IMG/VR virus record: IMGVR_UViG_3300035696_000002
DNA from: a virus
Taxonomy: Duplodnaviria > Heunggongvirae > Uroviricota > Caudoviricetes
DNA: 64,000 nt
Direction: 5' to 3' (one strand)
This document shows, piece by piece, positions 47,869 to 54,359 of this stretch. The notes under the pieces were generated by a model. The model made no database searches and was not told where the DNA came from. It saw only the letters and a list, made by a program, of their open reading frames with translations. Position 1 is the first letter of the stretch. The number at the start of each line of letters is the position of its first letter. Both the position numbers and the translations under genes were made by a program.

Positions 47869-48002
47869 GCCCCCGTCGTCTAGTGGTTAGGACGCCATGG
47901 GCTACAAACGTTGCTCTGGTTCTAGGCCGGGGCACAGGAATTCTAGGCATCCTGAGTTTGTGGTAAGTGGATACGCGAGTTCGAATCTCGCCGGGGGCAA
48001 CA
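47869..48002 (+). ncRNA. tRNA-like RNA with anticodon loop replaced by a branched two-hairpin insert
   Basis: Acceptor GCCCCCG/CGGGGGC, D arm GTCTAGTGGTTAGGAC, T arm GCGAG-TTCGAAT-CTCGC; ~70-nt insert; ends AACA, not NCCA. Confidence 0.7.
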
Positions 48003-48423: not shown

Positions 48424-48453
48424 TTGACAAAAGTCTGAGAACTACAGTATTCT
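48424..48453 (+). promoter_or_regulatory. Promoter TTGACA-N18-TATTCT
   Basis: Consensus -35, near-consensus -10. Confidence 0.7.
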
Positions 48454-48612
48454 CTTAATGTAAGCCTGCGATTGACCGCTGCTTGCCCTTAGTGGAGAAA
48501 CAGCCCAGAGGGCGAAAGGGTGTGAATAGCCCCGAGCATGTCCCGCAGCCCCCGCTTCCGGTTGAATATTCACTGACGCCGGAAGTCGCGATTGTAGGGG
48601 GACAACAATTTT

Positions 48613-49052
48613 AGGCCGGGAAAGCAGTATCGGCCAACAAGCGTGATCGGCTATGCCAGCCCTTCCTTCTAAACCTTGACTGCTTATCAAATCTAGGTCT
48701 GGCGATTTCTGATCCAAAAGCCACGGGGAGTGACGGCACTGGAGTAATGGTGCGGATTCGTGGTTGCAAGCAGCCGAAGGGGCTTCTCATGTAGAGCCTC
48801 TGAGATGGGGACGTTCTGGACTTGCAAGCGGCGTCGCGTAGCAACTGAAACGCGACAGACGAGGCCCCCGGCTCATTCCCTGATTAAGAATGGGGTAGAG
48901 TCTCGAAAGAGAAAGCACCTTAGATCAGTGCGGCGGCTCTGCCGGAGAAACCCTCTGCCCCAGTTAGTAATCCTGTGCAGGGTAAACCGCCGTATGACGT
49001 GAAGCTGCGGCGAGGAACGGATAGCGGTTATTGGCGAAGAGCCTACTGCACA
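48613..49052 (+). ncRNA. Candidate large structured ncRNA (~440 nt)
   Basis: Dense nested helices (GCCCTTC/GAAGGGGC, CTGCTT/AAGCAG, AGCCACGGG/TTCGTGGTT, TCGCGT/ACGCGA, GCTCATTC/GAATGGGGT, TGCGGCGG/CCGCCGTA); no credible ORF. Confidence 0.5.
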
Positions 49053-49062
49053 AAGTTTTTGC

Positions 49063-49091
49063 TTGACAGTTCGCCAGCAGTCGTATAGGCT
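49063..49091 (+). promoter_or_regulatory. Promoter TTGACA-N17-TAGGCT
   Basis: Consensus -35 and TAnnnT -10, ~19 nt before the tRNA-like RNA at 49110. Confidence 0.5.
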
Positions 49092-49109
49092 GGATTCTGA
49101 TATAGAAGG

Positions 49110-49260
49110 GCTGCCCGTCGTTTAAGCGTGGACTCGTTGTTGCAACAGCGACCCACACGGTAAGACGCCGGGCCTAAGGCGAAAGCCTCGATGGAAACGT
49201 CGTCGCAGCAATGCGGCACTCCCTCAGCGGGGATTGGGTTCAACTCCTGACCGGGCAGCT
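49110..49260 (+). ncRNA. Expanded tRNA-like RNA (hairpin in D loop, three GNRA hairpins in place of anticodon loop)
   Basis: GCTGCCCG/CGGGCAGC, D stem GTTT/AGAC with GGT, T loop GGGTTCAACTCC; no CCA. Confidence 0.6.
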
Positions 49261-49292
49261 TCTTCTTGTAATTCAAAATTTTCGAAATACCG

Positions 49293-49298
49293 AGTATT
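49293..49298 (+). promoter_or_regulatory. Class B (GTATT) promoter motif upstream of leader ORF and tRNA array
   Basis: AGTATT after an AT-rich tract; same motif precedes four leaderless-looking genes. Confidence 0.5.
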
Positions 49299-49320
49299 AC
49301 TGTAGAGACACCGAGGAAAT

Positions 49321-49452
49321 ATGAACTTCAACCTGACCAACGCGACCGCCGTAGCAACCACTGGCGGAGTTGTGTGTGCAGGTGAAGCTGGTACGGTCGC
49401 CGCTGGAGCGGCGGTCGAAGATACCATGTCCTCGGAGAATGATTTCGATTAA
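49321..49452 (+). CDS. Putative attenuator leader peptide, 43 aa: MNFNLTNATAVATTGGVVCAGEAGTVAAGAAVEDTMSSENDFD
   Basis: GAGG RBS; 22 of codons 8-34 are GNN; 3' end overlaps antiterminator; below ORF-track size cutoff. Confidence 0.75.
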   Translation: MNFNLTNATAVATTGGVVCAGEAGTVAAGAAVEDTMSSENDFD

Positions 49453-49481
49453 ATAAAACGAAATCAGAGACTTCCGGGGAC
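49428..49481 (+). promoter_or_regulatory. Antiterminator hairpin
   Basis: GTCCTCGGAG(49428-37)/TTCCGGGGAC(49472-81) plus TGATTTCG(49440-47)/CGAAATCA(49459-66); shares 49476-81 with the terminator. Confidence 0.7.
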
Positions 49482-49508
49482 GCCGAAAACGGCGTCCTTT
49501 TTGTTTTT
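49476..49508 (+). terminator. Intrinsic terminator directly before the first tRNA
   Basis: GGACGCCG-AAAA-CGGCGTCC followed by TTTTTGTTTTT. Confidence 0.9.
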
Positions 49509-49584
49509 GCACTGTTAGTTCAGCGGTTAGAACGCTTGCTCGACAAGCAAGAGGTCGGAGGTTCGAATCCTCCACGGTGCACCA
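49509..49584 (+). tRNA. tRNA-Val(GAC)
   Basis: Cloverleaf, loop TC-GAC-AA (C33), CCA encoded. Confidence 0.92.
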
Positions 49585-49590
49585 AGTTTC

Positions 49591-49665
49591 GCGGGCTTAG
49601 CTCAGTGGTAGAGCGGTACCTTGCCAAGGTACAGGTCGCGGGTTCGAGCCCCGCAGCCCGCTCCA
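49591..49665 (+). tRNA. tRNA-Gly(GCC)
   Basis: Cloverleaf, TT-GCC-AA, TCCA end. Confidence 0.95.
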
Positions 49666-49681
49666 TTTTGAAGGGTTGACC

Positions 49682-50395
49682 ATGGAACAACTGTACGGTG
49701 TCAACGGGTTGATTTTCTGGACGGAGCGAGAGATCGCGACCCGCAAGCTGGTTGAAAGTCATTTGGTTCAGGCGTTGAAAGACAGCCTGAAAAAGATGAA
49801 CCGGGCGTGGGAGTTCTTCCAAGTGGAGGCCCCAATTTTGACGCCGAGCGAGTTTGTGAACAAGAACTACTCGAAGGATGACATGTATGCCGTCGAGCAG
49901 AAGTTTGGCGACACGTTACAGGAAGCGAACAACCCGGCAGTGCAGTTGATTGCCCGGCCAGAAACAACGATGGGCTCGTATGAGTTCGCAAGATACTTGC
50001 TGAACCCGCACAACGAGCAGAAAGTGCGAATGCCCCTCGTGGTTTGGCAACATGGCAAAAGTTTTCGCCGGGAGCAGGATCAGCCGACGAAGTTCATGCG
50101 GTTGAAAGAGTTTTACCAGTTGGAGTTTCAATGCATTTATTCTCCAACGACCGGGATGGATTACGCGGCACATGTGATCCCGGATATGGCGGCAGCGATG
50201 CAGCAGTTGGTCGGCGAATGTAAGATCGTGGCCAGTGATCGTTTGCCGGATTACTCAGAATGCACGATGGATATTGAGCACAACAGTGGTATGGAACTTT
50301 GCTCGATCTCGTTGCGAAAAGATTTTGAAGGTGCGAAGGTTCTGGAGATTGCAGTCGGAACTGATCGCGTGGTGACAAAGTTTTTGGGGCTATAG
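49682..50395 (+). CDS. Class II aminoacyl-tRNA synthetase catalytic core, GlyRS (alpha2-type)-like, no anticodon-binding domain
   Basis: 237 aa; APILTP, RPETT, motif 2 QHGKSFRRE...MRLKEFYQLEFQ, ELCSISLRKDF, motif 3 LEIAVGTDR then stop. Confidence 0.8.
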   Translation: MEQLYGVNGLIFWTEREIATRKLVESHLVQALKDSLKKMNRAWEFFQVEAPILTPSEFVNKNYSKDDMYAVEQKFGDTLQEANNPAVQLIARPETTMGSYEFARYLLNPHNEQKVRMPLVVWQHGKSFRREQDQPTKFMRLKEFYQLEFQCIYSPTTGMDYAAHVIPDMAAAMQQLVGECKIVASDRLPDYSECTMDIEHNSGMELCSISLRKDFEGAKVLEIAVGTDRVVTKFLGL

Positions 50396-50462
50396 CTCAG
50401 TCTGGGAGAGCGGGTGCTTTGCAAGCATCAGGTCGTCGGTTCGAGCCCGACTAGCTCCACCA
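50386..50462 (+). tRNA. tRNA-Ala(UGC)
   Basis: G3-U70, TT-TGC-AA, ACCA; overlaps last 10 nt of aaRS-like ORF. Confidence 0.95.
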
Positions 50463-50474
50463 AGTTTACAATGC

Positions 50475-50551
50475 GGGGCCGTGGTGTAGAGGCCTAACAT
50501 GCATCCCTGTCACGGATGAGATCGCGGGTTCGAATCCCGTCGTCCCCGCCA
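50475..50551 (+). tRNA. tRNA-Asp(GUC)
   Basis: CT-GTC-AC, GCCA. Confidence 0.93.
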
Positions 50552-50649
50552 AATTTGATCGTGCCGTCTCGGACGGCGATAGCAGCCGGAGGCCAAAAGG
50601 CCTACGGTGTTGGGGCGGCTGGCCCCTTGAGCATCCGAGCTAAATTTCT

Positions 50650-50726
50650 GGTGCGGTAGCCAAGACGGTAAGGCGTCTGCCTGCAAAGCAGATCATGCGT
50701 CGGTTCGATTCCGACCCGTACCTCCA
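50650..50726 (+). tRNA. tRNA-Cys(GCA)
   Basis: CT-GCA-AA, TCCA. Confidence 0.93.
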
Positions 50727-50731
50727 AGTTT

Positions 50732-50806
50732 GGGCCAGTAGCATAACTGGGAATGCATCTCGCTTGCAACGAGAAAGAACGGGTTCGAATCCCGCTGTGT
50801 CCACCA
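50732..50806 (+). tRNA. tRNA-Ala(UGC), atypical acceptor stem
   Basis: CT-TGC-AA, G3-U70, ACCA; bulged acceptor GGGCCAG/CTGTGTCC. Confidence 0.8.
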
Positions 50807-50894
50807 ATTCGAGGGTGCCTGCGAATAACCCCAAATAAGCAGGTCTGTGAGAGCAATTCGGCGTATGTCTCACACCCTCTCACCGTTCGATGTA

Positions 50895-50969
50895 AGCGGC
50901 GTAGCCAAGTGGTAAGGTAGAGGTCTGCAAAACCTTTAGTCGCGGGTTCGATTCCCGTCGCCGCTTCCA
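50895..50969 (+). tRNA. tRNA-Cys(GCA), second copy
   Basis: CT-GCA-AA, TCCA. Confidence 0.9.
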
Positions 50970-50975
50970 AGTTTT

Positions 50976-51292
50976 GTGCCGAACCGGATGATCGCCGCCT
51001 GTTTCAGCAGGGGGAGGAAAGTCCGGGCTCCATAGAACAGCGTACCGGATAACGTCCGGGCATTCGTGAAGCGAAAGCGGATCGGGTGACGATTAGAGCT
51101 ACAGAGACGAGTCGGCGAAAGCCGGGTGAAACGAGCAATCTCTACGCGGAGCAATCTCAAATAGGCCGTGAGCCTCTGTTCGGGGCGTTATCAAACGGCG
51201 GGTTGAGAGCTTGAGCCAATCGGCAACGGTTGGCCTAGACGAATGATCGTCGCGTCGCAAGACGTACAGAACCCGGCTTATAGGTTCGGCAC
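50976..51292 (+). ncRNA. rnpB: RNase P RNA, compact bacterial type A-like
   Basis: P1 GTGCCGAACC/GGTTCGGCAC, GAGGAAAGTCCGGGCTCC, ACAGA, GGTGAAAC, GGAGCAA, ACAGAACCCGGCTTAT. Confidence 0.95.
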
Positions 51293-51302
51293 AAATTTTA
51301 AC

Positions 51303-51378
51303 GCGGACATCGCCTAGCGGCTATGGCCTCTGCCTTCCAAGCAGTTGATCGCGGGTTCGAGTCCCGCTGTCCGCTCCA
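51303..51378 (+). tRNA. tRNA-Gly(UCC)
   Basis: CT-TCC-AA, TCCA. Confidence 0.92.
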
Positions 51379-51439
51379 TATCCAGACGCCATAGGCTTGT
51401 TCGGTTGGCGGCATCCGGTGGAAGCCCGGAAACAAGTTT

Positions 51440-51515
51440 GGGGTCGTAGTTCAGTTGGGAGAACGCTTCCATGGCATGGAAGAGGTCAGGGGTTCAACTC
51501 CCCTCGGCTCCACCA
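51440..51515 (+). tRNA. tRNA-Ala(GGC)
   Basis: AT-GGC-AT, G3-U70, ACCA. Confidence 0.95.
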
Positions 51516-51520
51516 AAATT

Positions 51521-51619
51521 AACATCTGCCTATAAGCCAAGCGGCGAAAGCCGGGGCAGAGACCGACCGAAAGGCGTTCACCCATGAGTGAACATACTGA
51601 AGAGTCCTTGGCAGTTGTT
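51521..51619 (+). ncRNA. Candidate multi-hairpin RNA between tRNAs
   Basis: Closing AACA-CTGCC/GGCAG-TGTT; CGGC-GAAA-GCCG, CC-GAAA-GG, GTTCAC/GTGAAC. Confidence 0.45.
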
Positions 51620-51620
51620 T

Positions 51621-51698
51621 GGCCCGGTCGTCTACGTTCGGTTAGGACATCAGCCTTTCAAGCTGAAAAAAGGGGATCGTCGCCCCTGCGGGCTACCA
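51621..51698 (+). tRNA. tRNA-Glu(UUC), atypical T loop
   Basis: CT-TTC-AA, T loop ATCGTCG, ACCA. Confidence 0.85.
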
Positions 51699-51701
51699 AA
51701 T

Positions 51702-51837
51702 TTGTGTGATCCACGCGGACTCCCTTGAGTGGGTAGAAAAGCGTCGTAGCTGCGGCTGCGAGATTCGATACCGAGAGGTCGTTGGTTCCGGGAAACCCGA
51801 ATCAATCGTGGTGAAAGCCGACCGACTGGGACACACA
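51702..51837 (+). ncRNA. Candidate multi-hairpin RNA
   Basis: Closing TGTGTG-ATCCA/TGGGACACACA; TCGTAGC/GCTGCGA, GGTCG/CGACC, TTGGTTC-CGGG/CCCG-AATCAA. Confidence 0.45.
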
Positions 51838-51871
51838 GTTTTCGATTGCAGGGGGATGCTATGACACAGCA

Positions 51872-51987
51872 GGACGCTATTGGTCGTGTCCCGGTTGCGG
51901 GGTACGTCGAGAAATAAAAACCGGAGAACGACGGCACATCCGTTTTCTTCGCAGCAAGAAGAAACGGCTCCGTAAGAAGTGGCGTCC
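51872..51987 (+). ncRNA. Candidate multi-hairpin RNA
   Basis: Closing GGACGCTATT/AGTGGCGTCC; GTCGT/ACGAC, CCGGTT/AACCGG, CCGTTT-TCTT/AAGA-AAACGG. Confidence 0.4.
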
Positions 51988-52181
51988 GACTCACGAGGGC
52001 GGTTCGGAGAGGTACTGGCGAACTGTTGTTTTCACACCTAAGTGGGTGTGGTGCTGGCGTCTCACTTGTCAGGTACGATTTGAAGTGAAGTGGTTGATCG
52101 AGTGTGGGCTCACTGGGAATGAGCCGTTGCCGTTTGGCGAGAAACTGAATCGCTACACCGATCCAGATTCAGATTTGTAAT

Positions 52182-52257
52182 GCGGGAATAACTCAGTTGG
52201 TAGAGTGCTTGCTTCCCAAGCAAGATGTCGCGGGTTCGAGTCCCGTTTCCCGCTCCA
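52182..52257 (+). tRNA. tRNA-Gly(CCC)
   Basis: TT-CCC-AA, TCCA. Confidence 0.95.
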
Positions 52258-52323
52258 AGATTTAGGGGAGGCTCCGTTGTTGGACGGAGGTCAAAACTGG
52301 AGTCACGCCCATCCTCCCCAATT

Positions 52324-52401
52324 GCACTGTTAGCTCAGTCCGGTTAGAGCGTTCGCTTCACACGCGAAAGGTCGCAGGTTCGAGTCCTGCACGGTGCACC
52401 A
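52324..52401 (+). tRNA. tRNA-Val(CAC)
   Basis: TT-CAC-AC, ACCA. Confidence 0.93.
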
Positions 52402-52407
52402 AGTTTC

Positions 52408-52483
52408 GGGGCTGTAGCTCAGTTGGGAGAGCGTTCGCTTCGCACGCGAAAGGTCACGGGTTCAACTCCCGTTAGCTCCACCA
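52408..52483 (+). tRNA. tRNA-Ala(CGC)
   Basis: TT-CGC-AC, G3-U70, ACCA. Confidence 0.93.
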
Positions 52484-52484
52484 G

Positions 52485-52614
52485 TTTCGGTCTGGGCGGC
52501 GTATGCCGCAGCGGTCATAGGCGACCGTAAATAGGAAAGCACCCAAGGTTGGAAAGGCCCGTTCGATTCGGGAGAAGTTGCTTCTGGGGATGGTAAGACA
52601 ACCTACGACCGAAA
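52485..52614 (+). ncRNA. RNA with circularly permuted tRNA-like domain (YrlA-like layout)
   Basis: Terminal stem TTTCGGTC/GACCGAAA; AGGTTG/CAACCT encloses T arm CCCG-TTCGATT-CGGG, hairpin AGAAG/CTTCT, D-like TGGTAAGA. Confidence 0.5.
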
Positions 52615-52621
52615 ATTTTTA

Positions 52622-52683
52622 GGGCGGGTCACGGCGGGTAGCCAATGTGCACAACGCGGGTTCGATTCCCGTTCCGTCCACCA
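52622..52683 (+). ncRNA. 62-nt mini tRNA-Ala-like RNA lacking a normal anticodon arm
   Basis: GGGCGGG/TCCGTCC (G3-U70), ACCA, canonical T arm GCGGG-TTCGATT-CCCGT. Confidence 0.7.
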
Positions 52684-52721
52684 AGTTTCTAGCCTTTGCC
52701 GCAGTGCTGGAATTTTCAAAT

Positions 52722-52776
52722 GGGCGACCTAGTGGTAAGGCGGCTTAATGGGGTGCCGATTCCCCATCGTCCACCA
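52722..52776 (+). ncRNA. 55-nt mini tRNA-Ala-like RNA with no anticodon arm
   Basis: GGGCGA/TCGTCC (G3-U), ACCA, D arm CCT-AGTGGTA-AGG, T-like arm TGGGG-TGCCGATT-CCCCA. Confidence 0.65.
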
Positions 52777-52783
52777 AGTTTTT

Positions 52784-52859
52784 ACGCGGGTAGCTTAGCG
52801 GCTAAAGCGGTGCCCTTACAAGACACTCATCGTGGGTTCGAGTCCCACCCTGCGTACCA
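52784..52859 (+). tRNA. tRNA-Val(UAC)
   Basis: CT-TAC-AA, ACCA. Confidence 0.9.
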
Positions 52860-52863
52860 AGTT

Positions 52864-53043
52864 ATGAACGAAGAGCAGGTCTGGAAGTTTTACGCAGAGA
52901 GGTTTTGGACGCCCTGTCAGCACGTGAGACAATGCGTCGGCCTGTGTGCCCTCTGCTTGGAACAGACCGTGAAGATGTACGAGAATTTCGTTCCACAGGT
53001 TGTTTCGATAGGCTGTCCGGGGAATACGTCGAATACCCGGTAG
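52864..53043 (+). CDS. Possible small Cys-rich protein (59 aa)
   Basis: MNEEQVWKFY...CQH..C...CALC; no RBS; 3' part overlaps hairpins. Confidence 0.3.
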   Translation: MNEEQVWKFYAERFWTPCQHVRQCVGLCALCLEQTVKMYENFVPQVVSIGCPGNTSNTR

Positions 53044-53161
53044 GACTGATGGAGGAGACGGCTGCAACCGCGAGACCATTCAGTGTTGGCAACGACCTAG
53101 ATCGAAGCGATTGCATAATGCCGCCCGCTTGCAGGTGGGTTGAAAAGCAATCGCAGAGTTT

Positions 53162-53239
53162 GGCCCTGTCGTCTACGGAAGGCTAGGACACGACCCTCTC
53201 AAGGTTGAAAACCGGGTTCGACCCCCGGTAGGGCTACCA
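53162..53239 (+). tRNA. tRNA-Glu(CUC)
   Basis: CT-CTC-AA, ACCA. Confidence 0.9.
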
Positions 53240-53245
53240 AATTTC

Positions 53246-53322
53246 GGGGACGTAGCTTAACTGGTTAGAGCGTCATCCTGTCACGGTGAGAGGTACGGGT
53301 TCAACTCCCGCCGTCCCCGCCA
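53246..53322 (+). tRNA. tRNA-Asp(GUC), second copy
   Basis: CT-GTC-AC, GCCA. Confidence 0.92.
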
Positions 53323-53621: not shown

Positions 53622-54359
53622 ATGCGTCTCCAGCTAATCAGCGACCTTCATACCGAGTTCTACGAGAACGTGCTCGAAATGTGTTTGAGCATCGAGATCG
53701 TGCCTGATCTTGATTTTCTCGTCATCGCCGGAGACCTCGTATCCGGGATGCAGTCCCTTGAGGAAGTGCGAGCCGCTTTCTCATTCTTCGCCAAGAAAGC
53801 CAAGCACGTGCTCTACGTGTACGGCAACCACGAATATTACAACAGCAGTGGCCCGGCTACGGAATTCAGAATCAAGTCCGTGGTGCCCGCGAACGTGCAC
53901 ATCTTGGACAACAACGAGATAACGCTTGAAGGAATTCATTTCTACGGCGGGGCGATGTGGTTCACCCGCGTCATCAACCCACTGGATGATCTCAACAAAT
54001 TTGGCATGTCCGACTTCACTCTGATTCAGGGCCTTGAGTCGTGGGTGTACAAGACCAACGCCCAGTTCACTGATCGGGGCCGGAGTCTTGTCAAGCCGGA
54101 AACAATCGTTATCACGCACCACCTGCCGCACCCGCAGAGCATCAATCCACGCTTCCGTGGCAGCAGCCTCAACCCGTGGTTCCTGTGCGACCAGACACGA
54201 ATGATCGCGATCAACAAGCCACGATTCTGGTTGCACGGGCACACGCACGACGCCTGCGATTACTTCGTCTACAACACGCATGTGATCTGCAACCCCTACG
54301 CCTACCCGCGTGAGCGAATGATGAAGGGAGTGTACAAACCTGTGGTGATCGAAGTATGA
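53622..54359 (+). CDS. Calcineurin-like metallophosphoesterase
   Basis: SDLH, AGD, GNHE, THH, HGHTH motifs. Confidence 0.92.
   Translation: MRLQLISDLHTEFYENVLEMCLSIEIVPDLDFLVIAGDLVSGMQSLEEVRAAFSFFAKKAKHVLYVYGNHEYYNSSGPATEFRIKSVVPANVHILDNNEITLEGIHFYGGAMWFTRVINPLDDLNKFGMSDFTLIQGLESWVYKTNAQFTDRGRSLVKPETIVITHHLPHPQSINPRFRGSSLNPWFLCDQTRMIAINKPRFWLHGHTHDACDYFVYNTHVICNPYAYPRERMMKGVYKPVVIEV

Follow-up and report, generated by a model that had tools for sequence, protein, structure and literature searches.

A candidate leader-peptide attenuator precedes a tRNA array covering one row of the codon table in a peat megaphage

Why should a phage gather every transfer RNA (tRNA) gene that reads a codon beginning with G, together with tRNA-Cys and no other decoding tRNA, in a single array? 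The question is raised by positions 49509-53322 of a 64,000-nt stretch of DNA (hereafter the window, to which coordinates refer unless another source is named) that belongs to one IMG/VR virus record of 463,033 bp, rated complete by CheckV. The phage is uncultured, the record's sequence is present in peat metagenomes, two of which may be its source sample, and rRNA was not found in the 463,033-bp record. No RNA data set was listed among those that contain the locus. A first-pass annotation made from the letters alone had proposed that the tRNAs are grouped either by a shared vulnerability to a nuclease or modifier or by co-regulation through a leader peptide. Judging from sequence, we assign a probability of roughly 0.6 to the array being one of six tRNA regulons that would sense supply through a leader-peptide attenuator placed in front of the genes.

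Leader codons and the tRNAs that follow them

ARAGORN at default settings found 15 tRNA genes on the + strand of the interval. A 16th, Glu-UUC at 51621-51698, has a degenerate T-arm and was matched by ARAGORN at a relaxed threshold and by Rfam with 33.2 bits against a gathering score of 29. The set comprises Val GAC/CAC/UAC, Ala UGC (twice)/GGC/CGC, Asp GUC (twice), Glu UUC/CUC, Gly GCC/UCC/CCC and Cys GCA (twice), and all 12 anticodons with G, U or C at position 34 that read the G row of the codon table (GNN codons) are thus present, plus Cys. This list is identical to that of the first-pass annotation. Neither a permissive Rfam scan nor relaxed ARAGORN on every gap revealed a further decoding tRNA inside the interval, including any of the non-GNN tRNAs that the annotation had named as potential counter-evidence, and no GNN decoder was found elsewhere in the 463-kb genome, all 14 sitting in this array. 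The genes lie at a density of ~4.2 per kb (16 genes in 3.8 kb), CCA is encoded in all 16, and the discriminator bases and the G3:U70 pair of the Ala genes agree with the anticodons.

The features upstream of the first tRNA are the following, where the two antiterminator strands are proposed from RNAduplex and folds:

49272-49300, + strand: sigma-70-like promoter (-35 TTCAAA, 17-nt spacer, -10 TATTAC)
49321-49452, + strand: leader open reading frame (ORF) of 43 codons, with a GAGG ribosome-binding site 5 nt upstream
49428-49437, + strand: proposed 5′ strand of an antiterminator, within leader codons 36-39
49471-49481, + strand: proposed 3′ strand of the antiterminator, overlapping the terminator's 5′ arm over its first 6 nt
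49476-49508, + strand: intrinsic terminator with a 10-bp G+C-rich stem, a 4-nt loop and a U-tract, ending 1 nt before tRNA-Val

Three sequence hallmarks of an attenuator are in place: an ORF with a ribosome-binding site after a promoter, enrichment for cognate codons, and a terminator between the ORF and the first tRNA. The promoter was not flagged by a generic consensus scan, and its spacer carries a motif common to the phage's tRNA operon promoters; a regular-expression scan for the shared promoter gave 10 matches genome-wide, five of which are tRNA operon promoters.

The composition of the leader mirrors the array. Val, Ala, Gly, Asp, Glu and Cys account for 26 of the 42 residues that follow Met1, compared with a proteome background of 0.365, and in its best 15-residue window 14 residues belong to the amino-acid set of the array (empirical p = 6.6e-4). 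The leader contains 25 GNN codons, which sample 14 of the 16 possible ones, and a single Cys codon.

Using the in-array protein, the downstream metallophosphoesterase and the RNase P motif as probes, we recovered four further lineages (L002/L017, L010/L011/L019, L012/L013 and L020) whose flanking proteins are 45-74% identical to those of the window. Their arrays hold 12-17 tRNAs per lineage, all of them Val, Ala, Asp, Glu and Gly plus one or two Cys, so that this membership extends over five lineages counting the window, while gene order varies between them. A 'Leu-AAG' call in the L020 array, obtained at a relaxed threshold, has no CCA, a mismatched stem and no Rfam match, and was treated as a remnant or a false call. 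Scanning the full genome and its relatives, as the annotation had suggested, thus returned arrays that are sorted, with a membership shared by five lineages in place of random mixing. In the more distant L003 and L005, tRNA genes occur only in small clusters for one amino acid each, and in L008 33 of them form one mixed array, the latter in agreement with the annotation's premise that phage arrays normally mix amino acids; leaders were looked for in these three and none was found.

A homologous promoter, leader and terminator occur in all four related lineages. The leader cores of L002, L011, L012 and G003 consist to 84-95% of Val, Ala, Gly, Asp, Glu and Cys, and exactly one Cys codon is found per leader, which parallels Cys being the one non-G-row tRNA of the array. 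Composition is more conserved than sequence in these peptides. Because sensor and output must stay matched in an attenuated regulon, a tRNA moved under a leader lacking its codons would be wrongly regulated, and the regulon model would in this way explain why membership is fixed while gene order drifts.

The same correspondence is found in the other tRNA operons of the genome. There are ~69 tRNA genes genome-wide plus a transfer-messenger RNA (tmRNA) and three tRNAs with a CUA anticodon, and this tRNA set is complete and divided among six or seven operons. Every cluster is sorted by amino acid, though the other arrays combine anticodon classes:

Ser and Leu-UAA cluster: leader with a Ser run
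Trp/His/Arg/Asn/Gln/Lys cluster with one Cys: leader rich in exactly Trp, His, Arg, Asn, Gln and Lys
Ile/Thr/Gln cluster: Thr/Gln/Ile leader
G-row array (window 49509-53322): the leader described above
Tyr/Leu/Phe cluster: Leu/Ser/Tyr leader
Pro/Met/Phe/Gln cluster: Met/Pro/Phe leader
CUA/Lys group: leaderless

Each of the six leaders is enriched for the amino acids of its own array, with p-values between <5e-6 and 0.014, and when leaders and array amino-acid sets are compared in a 6 x 6 matrix, the true pairing ranks best of 720 permutations. Five of the six leaders are followed by an intrinsic terminator with a U-tract. Matching leaders are also found in front of the Tyr/Leu and Pro/Met/Phe operons of relatives.

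In all five lineages, the 3′ end of the leader ORF (its last 12 sense codons) can base-pair with the 5′ arm of the terminator and with the bases just upstream of it. RNAduplex gave -18.1 kcal/mol for this pairing in the window, compared with a mean of -11.3 for shuffled sequences, and the complementarity exceeded that of shuffled controls with p = 0.0275 in the window and p = 0.0005, 0.008, 0.0005 and 0.0065 in the other lineages, whose paired sequences differ. Leader-terminator complementarity of this kind is also present in four other operons of the genome (p = 0.0005-0.03). When a ribosome was modelled on the stop codon of the leader, the full terminator of 8-12 bp was predicted in every lineage, and a clean antiterminator was obtained in the minimum-free-energy (MFE) folds of L011 and L012.

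From the anatomy, the match in composition, its conservation and the complementarity we infer a feedback of tRNA supply through stalled ribosomes and antitermination, which would operate as follows. When the aminoacyl-tRNAs concerned are plentiful, the ribosome would reach the leader stop codon and cover the antiterminator 5′ strand in codons 36-39, so that the terminator forms and transcription stops. When any one of them is scarce, the ribosome would stall in the GNN/Cys run of codons 8-34 and leave the antiterminator to pair with the 5′ arm of the terminator, upon which RNA polymerase would continue past the terminator into the tRNA genes and the RNase P RNA gene described below. Co-regulation through the leader peptide, the second of the annotation's two proposals, is thereby supported in silico by composition, by the layout in five lineages, by complementarity and by the leaders of the other operons.

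Several observations weigh against this attenuator model. No clean switch is seen in the MFE folds of the window, L002 and G003, and the terminator survives in some stalled-ribosome contexts; because of this ambiguity the case for these three rests on complementarity and kinetics, and the switch would have to be kinetic. Folding predicts the RNA to be ON when it is not translated, in contrast to that of the trp attenuator. The five lineages are homologous, so their complementarity p-values are not independent. The array offers no tRNA for 16 of the 42 leader residues, six Thr and four Asn among them. The fit is imperfect elsewhere in the genome as well: the leader of operon A6 (Pro/Met/Phe) contains Cys while its array has no tRNA-Cys, the A2 array has a tRNA-Cys while its leader has no Cys, and A6 has a leader but no canonical terminator. 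Finally, the regulon model accounts for keeping a grouping, not for the grouping being the G row.

Two of these points, the ambiguity of the thermodynamic switch in three of five lineages and the leader of A6 without a canonical terminator, would also fit short ORFs that are real but act in another way, through Rho-dependent polarity, through translation-coupled protection or processing of the precursor, or as peptides with a function of their own. We consider this very unlikely given the U-tract terminators after five of the six leaders, the conserved complementarity to the terminator arm and peptides that keep composition more than sequence.

RNase P RNA and a synthetase-like gene inside the array

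The interval contains more than tRNAs: an RNase P RNA, an ORF resembling a class II aminoacyl-tRNA synthetase (aaRS) and two anticodon-less tRNA-like elements were absent from the first-pass annotation. Most likely, all G-row decoders, tRNA-Cys, the RNase P RNA and the small class II aaRS-like gene form one co-transcribed operon:

49509-49584, + strand: tRNA-Val GAC, with C33 in place of the usual U33
49591-49665, + strand: tRNA-Gly GCC
49676-50395, + strand: class II aaRS-like ORF of 239 aa
50386-50462, + strand: tRNA-Ala UGC (G3:U70, A73)
50475-50551, + strand: tRNA-Asp GUC
50650-50726, + strand: tRNA-Cys GCA (U73)
50732-50806, + strand: atypical tRNA-Ala UGC with a weak acceptor stem, G3:U70 retained (Rfam, 47 bits), kept in L002 and L017
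50895-50969, + strand: tRNA-Cys GCA
50976-51296, + strand: RNase P RNA of bacterial class A, 321 nt (Rfam)
51303-51378, + strand: tRNA-Gly UCC
51440-51515, + strand: tRNA-Ala GGC (ARAGORN)
51621-51698, + strand: tRNA-Glu UUC (Rfam, 33.2 bits)
52182-52257, + strand: tRNA-Gly CCC
52324-52401, + strand: tRNA-Val CAC
52408-52483, + strand: tRNA-Ala CGC
52622-52683, + strand: anticodon-less tRNA-like element 1, with acceptor stem (G3:U70, A73), T-arm and CCA
52722-52776, + strand: anticodon-less tRNA-like element 2 (G3:U70, A73, CCA)
52784-52859, + strand: tRNA-Val UAC
53162-53239, + strand: tRNA-Glu CUC
53246-53322, + strand: tRNA-Asp GUC, the final gene of the array

The RNase P RNA matches Rfam model RF00010 with 208.2 bits against a gathering score of 100. 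Like the bacterial class A RNA, of which E. coli M1 RNA is an example, it covers the model at full length (positions 1-367) and has an intact P4 core and catalytic domain; unlike it, it lacks P13/P14 (the only parts absent), is encoded by a phage in which no RnpA gene was found, and lies between tRNAs, 6 nt from tRNA-Cys on one side and 6 nt from tRNA-Gly on the other. Because of this spacing, tRNA processing could release the RNA at both ends. The RnpA family PF00825 was not matched anywhere in the 463-kb genome at E <= 0.1, so a host protein would be needed. In relatives, RNase P RNA was found at L002 8890-9240, L011 3831-4153 and L012 4039-4436 with 162-181 bits, ~65% identity and an intact P4 core, in each case just 5′ of Gly-UCC as in the window. 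A search of deposited phage genomes for RNase P RNA returned none, the sole match being the chromosomal rnpB of Salmonella.

The aaRS-like ORF retains all three class II motifs, of which motif 2 is GlyRS-like, and is confined to a catalytic core without an anticodon-binding domain. It scored 28.5 bits with PF00587, just under the cut-off of 29.3, matched a GlyRS in the PDB with E = 6e-4, and has homologues of 54-76% identity in seven phage contigs. We do not regard it as a glycyl-tRNA synthetase proper, considering the missing anticodon-binding domain and a score of 38 bits with the GlyRS equivalog model, whose cut-off is 312. Structure prediction did not reveal its specificity either: the model is a generic class II core with a predicted local distance difference test score (pLDDT) of 67, and Foldseek matched PylRS, PheRS and GlyRS alike with template-modelling (TM) scores of ~0.5.

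In size and modelled fold the ORF also resembles a minimal PylRS catalytic domain, and the same genome carries three amber-reading CUA tRNAs. These lie outside the window at genome C1 238747-239065 (- strand), in a leaderless cluster beside tRNA-like genes with odd anticodon loops. Genome-wide recoding of TAG was rejected as an account of them, as long frames cover 94.6% under code 11 and TAG ends 66 of the 384 long frames. Another unusual tRNA outside the window, a 90-nt long-arm gene with anticodon AAA in the Tyr/Leu operon (genome C1 342299-342388, + strand), looks like a Leu-type body with a Phe anticodon.

Further irregular elements were noted in and around the array. Both anticodon-less elements carry the alanine identity set (G3:U70 and A73) without an anticodon arm, and similar truncated elements are present at L011 6499-6556 and L012 6484-6551. 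Valine tRNAs with C33 for the near-universal U33 occur in three lineages, namely Val-GAC of the window, Val-GAC of L020 and Val-UAC of L012. A CCA-AGTTT motif marks + strand tRNA 3′ ends and the adjoining spacer at 49582, 50460, 50724, 50967, 52399, 52681 and 52774; seven of its nine matches in the window fall in the array, where 2.0 are expected by chance, and it may serve as a uniform processing signal between genes. Directly 3′ of the array, at 53622-54359 (+ strand), is a calcineurin-like metallophosphoesterase (phrog_1649) whose position is kept in L010-L013 and which may be an RNA-end-healing enzyme. Upstream, at 47869-47999 (+ strand), a tRNA-like gene with good Glu/Gln-type acceptor, D and T arms has ~52 extra nt in the anticodon region and no CCA (Rfam, 44.8 bits). 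One further match to the shared promoter expression, at 48424, is followed by ~800 nt without a convincing ORF (48424-49268, + strand); a conserved structured RNA in the ORF-poor region 48455-49268 was considered and dropped, with a fold z-score of -0.84 and no conservation in relatives.

Why one row of the codon table

At the level of genes, placing all 14 G-row genes of the genome in one 16-gene array has a hypergeometric probability of 7.8e-13. Because isoacceptors cluster anyway, a fairer null is obtained by shuffling amino-acid families among operons, which allows for that clustering and still gives P = 9e-5 for a pure G row and P = 1.8e-4 for any row or column of the codon table. The permutation test of anticodon clustering that the annotation had called for thus indicates that the purity of the row is unlikely to be due to chance.

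A shared vulnerability was the annotation's other proposal, according to which the G-row tRNAs would be grouped as a block that replaces the targets of a host nuclease or modifier reading C36, C36-A37 or the acceptor stems. That phage tRNAs replace host tRNAs cleaved by nucleases is an established concept, and odd loops do occur here, in the C33 valine tRNAs of the window, L020 and L012. It is literally true, as the annotation pointed out, that every anticodon loop of the array contains a CpA step, but this is uninformative as a signature: A37 is found in 63 of 67 tRNAs genome-wide, so that C36-A37 is simply what any G-row tRNA looks like in this phage. Moreover, G37 is found in G-row tRNAs of relatives (two Asp and Val-GAC of L011, one Asp of L012), and the acceptor stems obey ordinary identity rules. 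Counter-defence against an anticodon nuclease would be recognized by a set equal to the targets of a known nuclease together with loop changes that evade it, whereas a whole codon row is found here within a complete complement; the phage carries the whole tRNA set and not one class, and all of its arrays are sorted across differing anticodon classes. We know of no nuclease with C36 specificity or with this set of targets. Septu and tRNA-Tyr appear in the accessible part of PMC13096335. Altogether, the vulnerability proposal is not supported and we regard it as extremely improbable.

Pure history, in which tandem duplication with anticodon change or the capture of a single block produced a grouping without function and the composition of the leader is incidental, could draw on the similarity of isoacceptors, which are mutual nearest relatives within the array (Val GAC/CAC 0.81, Gly GCC/CCC 0.78, Ala GGC/CGC 0.78). 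In addition, a single step at position 35 leads from one G-row anticodon to another, and a single step also separates Gly GCC from Cys GCA. However, two tRNAs for different amino acids resemble each other no more when they share an array (0.532) than when they do not (0.519; p = 0.105), the duplicate Asp genes and the duplicate Cys genes are only 61% identical, and identity elements fit the anticodons. Duplication with remoulding of anticodons was rejected for lack of a relatedness signal among array neighbours for different amino acids. History alone predicts neither six leaders that mirror their arrays nor a conserved single Cys codon, and membership has remained fixed across five lineages despite shuffling of the order; a purely historical origin therefore appears distinctly unlikely.

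The choice of the G row itself could be addressed by demand-matched co-transcription. Genes on one transcript are made in equal copies, so tRNAs with similar codon demand per gene would be grouped, the G row forming the highest class. Codon usage per tRNA gene (in % of codons) is indeed uniform and highest for Asp (2.79), Glu (2.73), Gly (2.61), Val (2.53) and Ala (2.23), compared with ~1.0-1.4 in the Arg/Lys/His/Trp array and ~1.6 in the Ser/Leu/Tyr arrays, and G-first codons make up 35% of all codons. Cys, with 0.39 per gene and two copies, departs from this pattern, as do Asn and Gln elsewhere, and the demand of Ile and Thr is equally high, yet these are placed in another operon. A permutation test of demand gave p = 0.37 with Cys and p = 0.017 only after post hoc removal of Cys. 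As the explanation of the array, demand matching is unlikely; it could, however, complement the attenuator model and account for the G row, on which that model is silent.

The array among known systems

Taking the operons together, we tentatively suggest, at somewhat less than even odds, that this clade of peat megaphages has parcelled the genetic code out among six decoding modules under independent regulation, each with a leader that senses its own codons, and that the G-row module adds an RNase P ribozyme and a minimal GlyRS-like enzyme, so that stalling on that row would jointly raise the synthesis, the processing and perhaps the charging of its tRNAs. If so, this would be closed-loop, codon-block-specific control of translation capacity by a virus. 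Leaders that work as predicted would let the virus gauge decoding speed per block of the code and top up exactly the matching tRNAs, with a compact and portable sensor of ~240 nt. Phage tRNA arrays would then be regulated supply modules whose order and membership carry meaning, the conservation of composition with drifting order would be explained, and the phage RNase P ribozyme would be tied into the same feedback loop. That one module is a whole row of the codon table raises a question about how tRNA sets are organised.

Leader-peptide attenuation is the classic means by which bacteria sense charged tRNA and is known for amino-acid operons and for pheST, with trpL, hisL, leuL, thrL, the ilv leaders and pheL as examples. 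To our knowledge, it is established for amino-acid and synthetase operons and not for tRNA genes themselves. The architecture described here agrees with these attenuators in its promoter, in a short ORF made of the reporting codons and in an intrinsic terminator with a proposed overlapping alternative pairing, and it resembles the ilv and thr leaders in being multivalent, with several amino acids reported at once. It differs in that the genes under its putative control are those for tRNAs, RNase P RNA and an aaRS-like protein, all encoded by a phage, in that the leader samples 14 different GNN codons in place of a run of one codon, and in a default without translation that is predicted to be ON. 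The accessible part of PMC3082878 covers pheL. Nothing on tRNA genes controlled by leaders, on RNase P RNA encoded by phages or on phage arrays sorted by codon came up in our literature search.

The phage shares a genome of more than 200 kb, an origin in environmental metagenomes, dozens of tRNAs, a tmRNA and aaRS-like genes with the huge phages of Al-Shayeb et al. 2020 (PMC7162821), for which a maximum of 67 tRNAs per genome was reported. Its ~69 tRNA genes are at or above that maximum and, unlike theirs, are sorted into putative regulons; neither RNase P nor leader peptides occur in the text of PMC7162821.

Array units of tRNA genes have been described in bacteria, plasmids and mycobacteriophages (PMC4758250, PMC5966550), as have the L-arrays of cyanobacteria (PMC8421152), and the accessible part of PMC4758250 sets the minimum for a unit at 20 tRNA genes and a density of 2 per kb. 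The G-row array exceeds this density with ~4.2 per kb and falls short of the gene number with 16. As far as the accessible parts of these sources show, both kinds of array pack tRNA genes closely on one strand of mobile or accessory DNA, with a presumed buffering role for translation during stress or defence. The described arrays mix amino acids in one block, whereas the phage has operons of fixed membership, each with a matching leader, and one of them comprises a whole row of the codon table.

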